A model generated the notes under the pieces. The model was not told where the DNA came from. It worked only from the letters and a program-made list of their open reading frames with translations, and searched no databases. A DNA stretch of 64,000 nucleotides from an uncultured Bacilli bacterium (GTDB lineage: Bacteria > Bacillota_I > Bacilli_A > RF39 > UBA660): positions 16,683-80,682 of the forward strand of contig CANRPK010000002.1 in NCBI GenBank assembly GCA_947632455.1, in the 5' to 3' direction. Shown here one piece after another: positions 3,162-24,887 of this stretch (positions within the stretch are counted from its first letter, which is position 1; each line of letters starts with the position of its first letter). Both the position numbers and the translations under genes were made by a program.

Positions 3162-3190
3162 ATTATATCAAACTTTTGTTCTTAAAACAA
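3162..3190 (-). promoter_or_regulatory. promoter of toxin A
   Basis: Minus strand reads TTGTTT, a 17-nt spacer, then TGATATAAT (extended -10). This leaves a ~55-nt 5'UTR. Confidence 0.6.
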
Positions 3191-3608: not shown

Positions 3609-3637
3609 ATTATATCAAACAAACGTTCTTTGCACAA
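3609..3637 (-). promoter_or_regulatory. promoter of toxin B
   Basis: Minus strand reads TTGTGC, a 17-nt spacer, then TGATATAAT. Confidence 0.6.
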
Positions 3638-20123: not shown

Positions 20124-20137
20124 CGAACATATGTATA
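20124..20137. promoter_or_regulatory. LexA (Cheo-type) box CGAACATATGTATA in the recA / orf126 divergent region
   Basis: Perfect left half CGAAC-N4 and a degenerate right half. 12/14 identical to the box at 24155-24168, and related to the one at 24201-24214. Confidence 0.6.
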
Positions 20138-20198
20138 TATTATACTTCAGTGTTGCTAAACCATACTGGTTATGTTAAAATAAAACTAAGGAGGAAAT

Positions 20199-20579
20199 AT
20201 GTCAAACTATGAAACATTAATGGCGAATAGTTTTAATCTTAAAAACTATCATGGAAGCAAAGATGAAAAAATTGCTTTACGTACATTAGCTACCGAAATG
20301 TCTGTTGCAACAGATTTTAATTTTGGTGAACCCGGAGAATCTAAAACTAATTTCGCAACAACTTTTAATTTTTTAATTGGCCTAGACAAACAAGATTTAG
20401 ACTTAGGAGGTTATTTATTAATTTCTAAATTATTTCAAATAAGACCAGAAGCATATATGGATTATAGTGGTGCTAGAATGTGGTATGAAACTAATAAAGA
20501 CCAATTTGATAATGCTTATGGAGCAGTTTTAACTTATATGAGAGAAAATAATCCTGAATTGCTTCCTCAAACTAGATAA
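20199..20579 (+). CDS. hypothetical protein (126 aa), divergent from recA
   Basis: Strong RBS AAGGAGG. No recognisable motif. Confidence 0.55.
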   Translation: MSNYETLMANSFNLKNYHGSKDEKIALRTLATEMSVATDFNFGEPGESKTNFATTFNFLIGLDKQDLDLGGYLLISKLFQIRPEAYMDYSGARMWYETNKDQFDNAYGAVLTYMRENNPELLPQTR

Positions 20580-21447: not shown

Positions 21448-22713
21448 TTATTTTTCCATTTTTATGATTGTCATTTCTTTTGTATTAATCTCTTTTATTA
21501 CTTCTCTTACTTCTTCTATTGTAATATCTGCATATATATCTTTTAAATTAGGAATTATATCTCCATAATATATTATATAATTTTGAATTAAACTATTAAC
21601 ATTTTCTACATCTTCATAATTTAATACTAAAGTCGCAATAGATGAATTTATTTTTCGCTTTAGCGTTTCTTCATCAATAGTTAAATTATCTAAAGCCCAA
21701 ACTATCCTTTTAATAGCTTCATCAACATATTTACTTTCTAAAGTAATATCAATTATTACATAATCATCTTGAACATATCTTGCTGTATTTATAAAAGTTA
21801 TAAGTTCATCTTTAAGTAATTCTTCTTTTAAATCTGATGTATCTCCAAAATTACTAGCTAAAATAATATTTAAAATAATATTTAATTTTACTAAATCTAT
21901 TTTCTTAAAAGCTTTTCTTTCTATTTTAAGCCCTATTTTAGCTTTAGGAACTTCAACATTCCCTTTTATTTCTAAATAATCTTTTACTACTTTTCTTGGC
22001 TCTTTTATTTCTGTTAATTTAAATTCTTTAAATTTTTTAAATTCCTTTTTATATAAATTCTCATTAACTAATTTTTCTATTTCATAAGGATTAACATTCC
22101 CAGTTACAACTAAAAACATATTTTGTGGTTGATAAAAAGTATTATATACTAACTTTATATCTTCTAGGCCAATCTTTTTTATATCACTAACTTCTCCGGA
22201 AATTAAATATTTATATTTTTCTTTATGAAAAATACATTTATTAAATTCATTATTCAAATTACTAAAAGGTTGATCTTTCCCCATATTTATTTCTGAGGCA
22301 ATAATCCCCTTCTCTTTTTTAATTATTTCTTTGGTAAAAAAGGGATTATAAACATAATCTAATAAATTATTTAAATTATCTTCTATTTTGCTTGTACCAT
22401 ATACTAAATAACTGGTATATTTATAAGTAGTAAAAGCATTAATATCACTTCCTAAAGGATCAAATAAATCATTAGCTGTTTTATTTTTATCTACATTAAA
22501 TTTTATATGCTCCATAAAATGTGCAATTCCATTTGGTACTTCAAACTTCTCATTATCTATCATAAATTCCGTATGTAAAGAACCAAATTTGACATTTAAA
22601 GATAAATAAAAACTTTTGGCATACTCATTATTCCATATATAAATTGGTAATCCCTGTTTAGAGATAGTATAATATATTTGTTCATCAATTCCTTTTATTT
22701 TAATTGTTTCCAT
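21448..22713 (-). CDS. M16 family zinc peptidase (active HxxEH subunit)
   Basis: GIAHFMEHIKF inverted zincin motif. Paired with an upstream M16 homolog, as in ymfF/ymfH. Confidence 0.8.
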   Translation of the reverse strand: METIKIKGIDEQIYYTISKQGLPIYIWNNEYAKSFYLSLNVKFGSLHTEFMIDNEKFEVPNGIAHFMEHIKFNVDKNKTANDLFDPLGSDINAFTTYKYTSYLVYGTSKIEDNLNNLLDYVYNPFFTKEIIKKEKGIIASEINMGKDQPFSNLNNEFNKCIFHKEKYKYLISGEVSDIKKIGLEDIKLVYNTFYQPQNMFLVVTGNVNPYEIEKLVNENLYKKEFKKFKEFKLTEIKEPRKVVKDYLEIKGNVEVPKAKIGLKIERKAFKKIDLVKLNIILNIILASNFGDTSDLKEELLKDELITFINTARYVQDDYVIIDITLESKYVDEAIKRIVWALDNLTIDEETLKRKINSSIATLVLNYEDVENVNSLIQNYIIYYGDIIPNLKDIYADITIEEVREVIKEINTKEMTIIKMEK

Positions 22714-23974
22714 CTTGTTCTTTCCCTTCTAAAATAAAAGTAATATTTGGCTTTATTTTACTTGCTACTTTAATTACTTCATCTCTTGTAATATCTTTTA
22801 TTAATTTAATTCTTTCATCTATAAGTGGTAAATCATCAAATATATTAAAAACATAATTATTGAGAACTCCTCCTGGATTATCTAAAGCTAAATTAAGAGC
22901 AAATATAAAATTTTCTTTAGCATATTCTAATTCTTCATCACTAAACATCCCATTTTTCATTTCTTTAAAAGCCTGATTAATTAATTTTTGAGCTTTTTTA
23001 ATATCTTTTTTGTTTATTGAAGTTTGCACCACTAATAAATTATCATATTTAAGATATAAACTTTTTACTCCATAACATAATGAATTTTTTTCTCTTAATA
23101 ATTGATAAAGCTTAGAATTTAATCCCCCTGCGCCTAAAATATAATTATAAAAATAAAAAGTTATAATTTTTTCTTTATCCGTTAAATCACTAATATTATA
23201 TATATTTACTAAATTACTTTCTAAGAAATTACTCTTTTCTTTAATAACTTGAACTTTCTTTCTCTCTTCATTATTTACATATAAAGATAATTCTTTTGTT
23301 TTAATAATAGGATTTTTAAAATATTTAAAAATTAAATTAGCTACTTCATCCATATCTATATTTCCCACTATAAATATATCACAATTCGAATTCATCATTT
23401 TTTTATAAGCTTCATATAATGTTTTTGGACTAATAGCCTCTAAATCTTCTAAAGAACCCATTACTCCATAACTACTAGGACTATTACTATCTAAATTACT
23501 TAGAGCTTTTTTTAATGTTGTTCTATTAATATCTTCATTAATACTTAATATATCATCATGAATTCTATTTTTTACTATTTTAAAATTTTTAATATCAAAC
23601 TCCGAAGCTTCTATAAACGGATTTAAAATCATTTCAAATGGTAATTTTATTACTTCTTCTAAATATTTAGAATCATCAACATACTTTGGTGCTAAAAAAC
23701 TTAAAACAAATGAAGTCATAAAACATTTACCAACTTTATTAACTACTCCATAAAAACTAGCTTGATATAGTTCTTCTAACTTTTTTCCTACTTCTTTTCT
23801 TGATGGATATTTAGCTGAACAATCCGTCATAATATCCGCTAGCATAGTTTTATTTAATGCCTCTTCTTTTATAGCTTCATCTCTAAATATAATCTCCATA
23901 TTTACTGTTTTAAATTTATTTGTTTTAATTGTATAAATATTAAAAGATGGGTATTCATATTTTTTATATTCCAT
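22700..23974 (-). CDS. M16 family peptidase-like protein (no HxxEH, probably the non-catalytic partner)
   Basis: M16 fold pattern, but the position of HxxEH reads MLADIM. Preferred start is ATG 23972-23974 (MEYKK) behind AGGTG. Confidence 0.7.
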   Translation of the reverse strand: MEYKKYEYPSFNIYTIKTNKFKTVNMEIIFRDEAIKEEALNKTMLADIMTDCSAKYPSRKEVGKKLEELYQASFYGVVNKVGKCFMTSFVLSFLAPKYVDDSKYLEEVIKLPFEMILNPFIEASEFDIKNFKIVKNRIHDDILSINEDINRTTLKKALSNLDSNSPSSYGVMGSLEDLEAISPKTLYEAYKKMMNSNCDIFIVGNIDMDEVANLIFKYFKNPIIKTKELSLYVNNEERKKVQVIKEKSNFLESNLVNIYNISDLTDKEKIITFYFYNYILGAGGLNSKLYQLLREKNSLCYGVKSLYLKYDNLLVVQTSINKKDIKKAQKLINQAFKEMKNGMFSDEELEYAKENFIFALNLALDNPGGVLNNYVFNIFDDLPLIDERIKLIKDITRDEVIKVASKIKPNITFILEGKEQDGNN

Positions 23975-24024
23975 AATACACCTCATTTTTTATTATAACA
24001 CAAATAATGTTTTTTATTAATCTT

Positions 24025-24117
24025 TTATCCCATTCTTAATCCTAAGGCTAAAATACCTATAAAAATAACAAAATAAAATAATAAAGCTCCTCCATAATTT
24101 ACTAAAACTTTTTTCAT
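24025..24117 (-). CDS. 30-aa membrane peptide MKKVLVNYGGALLFYFVIFIGILALGLRMG, divergent from lexA
   Basis: Below the track cutoff. ATG lies 6 nt after GAGGGAG. Has one TM helix. Its predicted promoter contains a LexA box. Confidence 0.5.
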   Translation of the reverse strand: MKKVLVNYGGALLFYFVIFIGILALGLRMG

Positions 24118-24138
24118 AATAACTCCCTCTTTCTAACA

Positions 24139-24174
24139 CGAACATTATATCGCAAATACATGTGTTCGCTCAAG
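24139..24174 (-). promoter_or_regulatory. promoter of the 30-aa peptide with an embedded LexA box
   Basis: Minus strand reads TTGAGCGAACACATGTATTTGCGATATAATGTTCG. That is -35 TTGAGC, the LexA box CGAACACATGTATT (24155-24168) overlapping the -35 and spacer, -10 TATAAT, then a second CGAAC half-site (24139-24143 on the plus strand). Confidence 0.55.
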
Positions 24175-24200
24175 TAGCTATTTTAAATTTTACAATAATT

Positions 24201-24240
24201 AATACATTTGTTTGACAGTCATACGTTTTTGTGCTATTAT
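24201..24240 (+). promoter_or_regulatory. lexA promoter with an overlapping LexA-box-like site
   Basis: TTGACA (24212-24217), a 17-nt spacer, then TATTAT. AATACATTTGTTTG (24201-14; reverse complement CAAACAAATGTATT) overlaps the -35 and matches the peptide box at 12/14 positions. Confidence 0.5.
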
Positions 24241-24260
24241 GAATATGGAGGTAATACAAA

Positions 24261-24887
24261 ATGGAAAATTTAAAACAAATTACTGAAAAACAAAATAATG
24301 TATTAGACTATATAAAAAAATTCTCAGCGGAGCATGGCTATCCCCCATCTATAAGAGAAATAGGAAAAGGCTTAGGTTTATCTAGTCCAGCGACTGTTCA
24401 TACTCATGTAAAAAAATTATGTAATGCAGGATATTTAAAAGTTGATAATAATAAATTTCGAGCTATGGAATTACTTGTAGATAATGAATATGAAGAAAAA
24501 AATGAAGAAATAGTTAAAGTCCCACTTTTAGGAAAAATTACTGCCGGTTCTCCGATTGAAGCTATTGAACGTCCCAATGAATTCTTTAGTCTTCCTGCTA
24601 GTTTAATTCCGGCTAAAGAAACTATTTTTACCCTAAATGTAAGTGGTGAATCCATGATCAATGCTGGTATTTTTGATGGTGATGTTGTTATTGTAAAAAA
24701 ACAAAATACTGCTCGTAATGGTGATATCGTCGTCGCTATGACTGATGCCAATGAAGTAACTTTAAAAACCTATTATAAAGAAAATGGTCATTTCCGTTTA
24801 CAACCTGAAAATGATACAATGGCCCCTTTTATTTTTGATAACATTACCATTTTAGGTAAAGCTATTGGTTTATATCGTAAATTCTAA
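24261..24887 (+). CDS. lexA: LexA repressor
   Basis: N-terminal wHTH (SIREIGKGLGLSSPATVHTHVKKL), an AG cleavage site region, and the S24 peptidase Ser/Lys (GESM...VTLK). Confidence 0.95.
   Translation: MENLKQITEKQNNVLDYIKKFSAEHGYPPSIREIGKGLGLSSPATVHTHVKKLCNAGYLKVDNNKFRAMELLVDNEYEEKNEEIVKVPLLGKITAGSPIEAIERPNEFFSLPASLIPAKETIFTLNVSGESMINAGIFDGDVVIVKKQNTARNGDIVVAMTDANEVTLKTYYKENGHFRLQPENDTMAPFIFDNITILGKAIGLYRKF

Follow-up and report, generated by a model that had tools for sequence, protein, structure and literature searches.

The window, the whole 64,000-nt stretch of DNA analysed here, belongs to a 1.54-Mb assembly of 126 contigs with 30% G+C, and the relatives of its lexA come from uncultured gut Bacilli of the RF39 or 'Mycoplasma sp. 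CAG:776' type, with rabbit samples the source of many. Reading the minus strand at 24025-24174, divergent from lexA, we find TTGAGCGAACACATGTATTTGCGATATAATGTTCGTGTTAGAAAGAGGGAGTTATTATG followed by the open reading frame (ORF) MKKVLVNYGGALLFYFVIFIGILALGLRMG; the order of elements is TTGAGC, GAACACATGTATTTGCGA, TATAAT, GTTCGTGTTAGAAA, GAGGGAG, TTATT and ATG (Table 1). An earlier, sequence-only reading of this DNA had described a promoter, two CGAAC half-sites, a ribosome-binding site (RBS) and a 30-aa ORF in this interval, and each of them is present there. We infer a transcription start for the peptide near 24137, which would give a leader of about 20 nt. At the RBS position, AAGGAG or AGAGG is kept in about 28 relatives. 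On the other strand, the promoter scan rates the divergent lexA promoter as stronger than the peptide promoter, and the product of lexA is a complete LexA (Pfam Peptidase_S24, 1.9e-32; LexA_DNA_bind, 5.1e-19). An overlapping 42-aa ORF (24145..24017) was rejected, as it starts inside the -10 hexamer, has no RBS and lies in a non-conserved frame.

Table 1. Features of the lexA-peptide locus and genomic copies of the variant LexA-type box (window positions unless a contig is named)
Feature	Position	Strand	Basis
Membrane-peptide gene, 30 aa, single helix (MKKVLVNYGGALLFYFVIFIGILALGLRMG, stop included)	24025..24117	-	family HMM, codon-position entropy, pN/pS
Ribosome-binding site GAGGGAG, 5 nt 5' of ATG	24123..24129	-	sequence and conservation
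Peptide promoter: -35 TTGAGC (24173..24168), 18-nt spacer, -10 TATAAT (24149..24144)	24144..24173	-	promoter scan, 10/12
LexA box 1, CGAACACATGTATT, predicted operator	24155..24168	-	recurrence in genome and conservation
Possible LexA box 2, CGATATAATGTTCG	24139..24152	-	Cheo-like box scan of window
lexA promoter, TTGACA (24212-24217)-17-TGcTATTAT, TG extension	24201..24240 (box included)	+	promoter scan
lexA, 208 aa, Ala-Gly cleavage site and Ser/Lys catalytic motifs	24261..24887	+	Pfam and motifs read from translation
Promoter of the M16 peptidase pair, TTAATA-17-TGtTATAAT	23992..24020	-	promoter scan
Two M16-family peptidase genes downstream of the peptide (context, outside the module)	21448..23986	-	Pfam
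CGAACA-N-ATGTAT copy 1, between recA and a divergent 126-aa orphan	20124-20137		
CGAACA-N-ATGTAT copy 2, peptide promoter	24155-24168		
CGAACA-N-ATGTAT copy 3, over the start codon of a 114-aa orphan	contig C3		

The peptide gene is conserved beside lexA

We compared 80 lexA loci from species-level representative genomes, 75 of them Bacilli-type, with Clostridial loci as the outgroup. Of the Bacilli-type loci, 54 of 75 have, divergent from lexA, a small RBS-bearing ORF that encodes one hydrophobic helix; such ORFs are the equivalents in related genomes for which the sequence-only reading had proposed a search. Within the close clade, whose LexA proteins are 85-94% identical, 28 peptide copies align gap-free through the helix. 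G9, G10, Y15, V17, F19 and G21 are invariant and I18 nearly so, giving the family helix motif GGxxxxYxVIFxG; all invariant residues fall in the helix and none in the tail. The window ORF carries every one of them, in a helix that follows the profile core K-x-x-GG-x4-Y-x-VIF-x-G.

Column entropies in the clade alignment sum to 19.6, 10.1 and 28.9 for codon positions 1, 2 and 3, and the mean pairwise pN/pS of the clade peptides is 0.47. Variability that is highest at the third position and lowest at the second, together with this ratio, argues for a translated and constrained sequence. A profile hidden Markov model (HMM) built from 27 clade members finds the window ORF as a single copy in its own genome (E=1.2e-13, 51 bits), the next match reaching only E=0.18. 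The occurrence in 54 of 75 loci, the coding pattern of substitution and this HMM score bear out the proposal that the ORF is a genuine gene.

A profile search of 1.84 billion representative proteins (E up to 0.001) recovers 84 clusters at 50% identity, almost all of 43-50 aa, and a protein search with a 43-aa relative as query returns only 4 clusters, all unnamed. No family in Pfam, NCBIfam or PHROGs matches the peptide, and relaxing the Pfam and NCBIfam searches to E up to 10 yields no match either for it or for its 43-50-aa relatives. The peptide had been called unannotated, which holds insofar as it is nameless; its exact 30-aa sequence is nonetheless already in public protein collections, on 8 contigs. 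Against more distant lexA-adjacent peptides the clade HMM scores weakly (best E=0.003), and homology between these and the window clade is weakly supported, mainly by shared position, promoter architecture and topology. From its conservation, we conclude that the 30-aa ORF is a real conserved gene and a member of an unnamed family of lexA-adjacent peptides in RF39-type Bacilli.

The peptide promoter carries a predicted LexA operator

Box 1 overlaps the final base of the -35 hexamer and fills the promoter spacer. Its left half is perfect and its right half is degenerate, with GTAT instead of GTTC. A 14-bp LexA-type box directly follows the -35 in all 50 of the 50 loci in which the peptide ORF lies directly behind the promoter, which agrees with the earlier proposal of a LexA-type operator, as judged by sequence, in this promoter. 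More distant relatives have the canonical arrangement TTGACA-CGAAC-N4-GTTCG-...-10 in the same place, and the consensus for the window clade is TTGnnCGAACAnATGTATnTGCGATATAATGTTCGTGTAAGGAG. The window peptide has its own LexA-box promoter beside lexA, TTGAGCGAACACATGTATT...TATAAT, as is typical of the family.

Several observations tie this promoter to the peptide gene. The conserved block spans exactly from the -35 to the RBS, and conservation collapses just upstream of the -35. In L002 and L028, the box-bearing promoter has stayed with the peptide despite a 0.9-kb insertion between it and lexA. Relatives that lack the peptide have also lost the LexA-box promoter and have kept the promoter of the M16 peptidase genes. 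The insertion itself (about 2100-3000 in L002 and about 2090-3000 in L028) carries a gene for a 218-260-aa multi-pass membrane protein. A further variation upstream of lexA is found in L065, where a LexA-box promoter is followed by a 68-aa ORF with no Pfam match, a 46-aa membrane peptide and a terminator, an order of elements that reads as a two-gene SOS unit.

Matches to CGAAC-N4-GTTCG with up to two mismatches occur five times in the window against 2.7 expected, a number that by itself is not above chance. The significance of box 1 lies instead in its conservation across about 30 sister species and in the recurrence of the same variant at the recA, lexA and Y-family polymerase promoters. Box 2, which matches the Cheo consensus at 12 of 14 positions and includes a perfect GTTCG half, is centred 16 bp from the centre of box 1 and covers the -10 and the presumed start site. 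The sequence GCGATATAATGTTCGTG in this region is nearly invariant in the clade and is absent in L010 and L033. Box 2 is possibly an operator, or merely promoter and start-site sequence; its invariance is ambiguous because the -10 and start site that it overlaps would be conserved anyway. On the lexA side, a LexA box CAAACAAATGTATT (minus-strand reading, 24201-24214) overlaps the lexA -35, and CAAAC-N4-GT(TTG/TCG) lies over this hexamer in nearly all relatives. We infer that LexA represses the peptide gene.

The promoter could instead serve mainly the M16 peptidase operon, with the small ORF as a leader or upstream ORF that has no function of its own. A scan of 23600-24700 detects no intrinsic terminator, and with none between the peptide gene and the M16 genes, DNA damage probably also raises transcription of both peptidases by read-through. 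That such read-through is likely in the window clade speaks for the leader reading. Several features argue against this reading: it is the peptide sequence that is conserved, not merely an open frame; the M16 genes are served by an extended -10 promoter of their own, which is retained after loss of the peptide module; the module ends in an intrinsic terminator in L040, L054, L060, L063, L065 and L074; and in distant relatives unrelated genes such as tkt come after it. We therefore regard a mere leader function as very unlikely. The members of the close clade likewise have no hairpin between the peptide gene and the peptidase pair, and their M16 promoter is conserved.

Candidate LexA boxes in the genome share a degenerate right half

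The 1.54-Mb genome contains no perfect CGAAC-N4-GTTCG. The variant CGAACA-N-ATGTAT occurs three times (Table 1) against about 0.3 expected from base frequencies, and the recA, lexA and Y-family polymerase promoters share a degenerate form of the box, CGAACAnATGTATw. A close variant, CGAACAATAGTATA, fills the promoter spacer of the Y-family polymerase/YolD operon. By these boxes, lexA, recA, the Y-family polymerase and the peptide appear to form a minimal SOS regulon whose operator has drifted. All candidate SOS operators of the genome have the degenerate right half (GTAT), and relatives outside the clade keep canonical boxes. The recognition-helix region of LexA also differs between the two groups (HTHVKKLCNAGY versus HVHLNNLEEKGY), which hints that operator and repressor are drifting together. 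We considered a fixed change in the recognition helix as the cause of the drift and set it aside, as the differences exist and are not interpretable from sequence alone.

Other genes of this genome lie behind related boxes. The Y-family polymerase (IMS) gene (contig C24:10263-11871), which lies behind a LexA-box promoter and ahead of a YolD-like gene, is interrupted by a frameshift within a run of A; this may reflect either an error of assembly or a genuine pseudogene. Two orphan genes without a Pfam match lie behind the LexA-box variant and are candidate SOS genes: a 126-aa gene divergent from recA (window 20124-20579) and a 114-aa gene (C3:16454-16805) whose start codon is inside the box. 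The window also contains two tandem type-I-toxin-like cassettes, each with a LexA-like box AGAAC-N4-GTTTG in the toxin-strand reading (3169-3182 and 3616-3629). Each toxin promoter has the box exactly in its spacer, flanked by a -35-like hexamer and the GATATAAT -10, as in TTGTGCAA-AGAACGTTTGTTTG-ATATAAT, and the box recurs at seven more sites in the genome (C2:98839, 99248 and 99668; C7:44644; C50:637; C52:2700; C59:2061). In E. coli, tisB, dinQ and symE are SOS-controlled, and the same may hold for these cassettes. Within the assembly, contigs C17, C30 and C99 stand out from the 30% G+C bulk by a clearly higher G+C content and dense overlapping ORFs in all frames, and are probably foreign or mis-binned DNA.

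The peptide occupies the position of yneA and sosA

In B. subtilis the gene order is lexA / yneA yneB ynzC tkt. Among the relatives of the window, tkt (transketolase) is the next gene after the peptide in at least seven (L039, L048, L049, L060, L063, L066 and L075). In the Clostridial outgroup loci L077, L079 and L080, the same position behind two LexA boxes is held by a 101-110-aa protein with a membrane helix. The L077 and L079 proteins match the NCBIfam YneA model (NF010723) with 53 and 40 bits, and that of L077 also has a Pfam LysM domain. These YneA-model proteins at the same site agree with the earlier suggestion that the peptide sits in the yneA/sosA position. According to the SosA paper (PMC6851548), Bacillus, Listeria, Mycobacterium and Staphylococcus encode their SOS division inhibitor in a gene divergent from lexA.

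A search of the window's genome with the YneA model finds no YneA elsewhere. A 107-aa protein that scores 28.9 bits was rejected as YneA, since it has two LysM domains and no membrane helix. The genome encodes three SEDS proteins (C27:8039-9097, C1:78530-79618 and C3:33426-34463) and one CtpA-like S41 protease. In five further loci (L047, L057, L059, L061 and L062), the gene divergent from lexA instead encodes a protein of about 210 or more aa (MGKAILSYTLDK...) with no Pfam match; its promoter has a degenerate box only, making it a different occupant of this 'SOS slot'.

The window peptide is a tail-deleted member of its family

In the usual family member, of 43-50 aa, a basic N-terminus leads into one membrane helix, behind which come a conserved Ser-Arg and a polar or acidic tail of about 20 residues, often with the semi-conserved ending [VIL]-x-[VIL]-N-x. 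AlphaFold2 with the family alignment predicts one continuous helix over residues 3-45, with pLDDT values of 92-94 for the membrane-spanning stretch but 56-69 for the tail; in full-length family members, the tail is thus modelled as an extended helix. The window peptide has a helix at about residues 4-27 that is free of charged residues, and its C-terminus lies three residues past this helix. Absence of the tail motif from the window copy marks it as a variant of the family and does not exclude it from membership.

In a DNA alignment, about 50 nt encoding the tail are absent from the window locus and from L001 and L036. The lexA tree groups these three with L010 (SH-aLRT 93). It is therefore strongly supported that an ancestor of the window organism and its two sister species underwent a deletion of about 50 nt that removed the tail. 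The three loci are about 14% diverged at lexA, and all retain exactly 30 codons, the start codon, the RBS, the promoter and both boxes. In pairwise comparisons among them pN is about 0.12 and pS 0.33-0.50, on small counts of 6-10 synonymous and 8-9 non-synonymous differences per pair; purifying selection on the remaining 30-aa helix is strongly supported. An independent tail-less trio of 33 aa (L055, L056 and L072) shows pN of 0.01-0.04 against pS of 0.18-0.38, and further tail-less forms include L042 (34 aa) and library entries of 27-35 aa. Constraint in separate tail-less trios argues that the helix alone is maintained by selection in several lineages.

These data bear on the possibility that the 30-aa copy is a decaying remnant, inactivated by the deletion and heading for loss as in several sister species. 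The whole peptide module has been lost independently about six times in the close clade (L005, L008, L012, L013, L022 and L034/L035), so the peptide gene is dispensable. The tail-less copy might moreover be weakened, because YneA and SosA both need their extracellular parts (PMC13396833, PMC6851548), and the RBS of the trio, AGAGG, is weaker than the AAGGAG of the clade. Weighing against decay are the integrity of the codons, start, RBS, promoter and boxes in three diverged species, the low pN relative to pS, and the recurrence of tail-less forms, one trio of which is under strong constraint. On this evidence we judge the remnant reading improbable.

The same data speak to another reading, in which the hydrophobic N-terminus is an export sequence and the tail is released from damaged cells as a peptide signal. 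The semi-conserved end of full-length members would fit such a signal, but the window form and other tail-less forms that recur are reduced to the helix and yet remain constrained, the invariant residues are confined to the helix, and we see no signal-peptidase-type cleavage motif. We find an exported signal hardly credible.

Comparison with SidA, SosA, YneA and TisB

In architecture, and in architecture only, the window peptide resembles SidA of Caulobacter crescentus, an SOS-induced division inhibitor of 29 aa in the inner membrane (PMC4211646): each has about 30 residues, one helix and no extracellular domain, and is LexA-controlled, which for the window peptide is a prediction. SidA acts, or is predicted to act, on FtsW; for the window peptide this target is presumed. 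The two differ in other respects. An NCBIfam scan that included the SidA model (NF033228) gave no match to the peptide at E up to 10; SidA is alphaproteobacterial, has a different LexA box and is not encoded beside lexA, whereas the window peptide adjoins lexA and reached its SidA-like size by a recent tail deletion. The sequence-only reading had suggested a new class of SOS effector. This overstates the case, as the peptide is a tail-deleted member of a widespread family of 43-50-aa proteins and SidA, which that reading overlooked, is already a helix-only SOS inhibitor.

SosA of Staphylococcus aureus (77 aa, PMC6851548) resembles the family in being lexA-divergent and LexA-controlled, the latter a prediction for the family, with an N-terminal membrane helix. 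Its extracellular C-terminal part has no LysM domain and is predicted to form an extended helix, as in full-length family members, and its C-terminus is a likely target of CtpA; the window genome encodes a CtpA-like protease. At 77 aa, SosA is longer than the family (43-50 aa) and than the window copy, which has 30 aa and no extracellular part. The membrane-proximal extracellular part of SosA is essential, and a SosA lacking 40 C-terminal residues is among the truncations showing that the C-terminal part is functionally essential (PMC6851548); in this comparison the family is set apart from SosA by length and layout. YneA of Bacillus subtilis and Listeria (NF010723, PMC13396833) is likewise divergent from lexA, with LexA boxes in its promoter and tkt nearby, and it is single-pass with the N-terminus inside, as the family is predicted to be. 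YneA requires its LysM domain (PMC13396833), which the peptide lacks, and the YneA model does not match the peptide, although it does match the Clostridial outgroup proteins at the same site.

The peptide could also be an SOS-induced membrane toxin like TisB of the Escherichia coli TisB/IstR-1 system (29 aa, LexA-controlled, type I; PMC2826370, PMC11449926), depolarising the membrane and bringing about dormancy or persistence without blocking the divisome. Size, LexA-type promoter and hydrophobic helix are shared with TisB, and the genome encodes type I toxin-like cassettes. The peptide differs from TisB/IstR-1, however, in having no antisense RNA gene: the promoter scan finds no plus-strand promoter between 24025 and 24140, nor any opposite or beyond the ORF. 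The leader of about 20 nt leaves no room for the long, structured, translation-blocking leader of tisB, and the helix is uncharged, whereas TisB needs charged and polar residues for its function (PMC11449926). The family moreover keeps its position beside lexA, with the synteny of yneA and sosA, and its normal member has an extracellular tail. The analogy with TisB drawn in the sequence-only reading is thus a poor one, and we consider a toxin of this type distinctly improbable.

A candidate SOS division inhibitor

Small membrane proteins that hold up division while DNA is being repaired have been found in only a few cultured species. Considering its position, regulation and architecture, we favour as reasonably, if far from firmly, probable the reading that the peptide is a LexA-repressed SOS division inhibitor whose membrane helix acts on an FtsW-type septal synthase. 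In the undamaged cell, LexA bound to CGAACACATGTATT in the promoter spacer, and perhaps to CGATATAATGTTCG over the -10 and start site, would keep RNA polymerase off. DNA damage would lead to RecA-stimulated self-cleavage of LexA and free the peptide promoter. The short-leader mRNA would be translated at once and the peptide inserted with its N-terminus inside. The conserved helix would then dock on the septal peptidoglycan synthase, a complex of an FtsW-type SEDS protein and a PBP, delaying division until repair is complete. The tail-less window peptide would work in the manner of SidA, via the membrane helix alone.

The membrane helix of YneA binds FtsW at TM7, as shown in a 2026 study that predicts the same for SosA, ChiZ and SidA (PMC13396833); the way in which such proteins inhibit the synthase is still under investigation. 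It is conceivable, and we put it forward tentatively, that a bare membrane helix of 30 residues is enough for an SOS division checkpoint in a Gram-positive-type lineage, the tail being a regulatory handle that can repeatedly be dropped, for example a degron for a CtpA-like protease. A helix-only SOS inhibitor of this sort would be undescribed for Gram-positive-type bacteria.

Small LexA-controlled membrane proteins that are encoded beside lexA and slow division are already a well-known kind; what appears new at this locus is the natural deletion of the tail and the drift of the operator. Here a reduced genome of 1.5 Mb shows what would be a drifted LexA operator, CGAAC-N4-GTAT, throughout a minimal SOS regulon. 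If the helix does suffice, the family would represent a natural split of SosA/YneA-type inhibitors into a helix that targets and inhibits and a dispensable module for turnover, and the window peptide would be the smallest such effector outside Alphaproteobacteria. The family is unnamed, abundant in uncultured gut Bacilli and short enough for synthesis, and nature provides it in full-length and tail-less versions; comparing the two could show which part targets FtsW and which controls removal.
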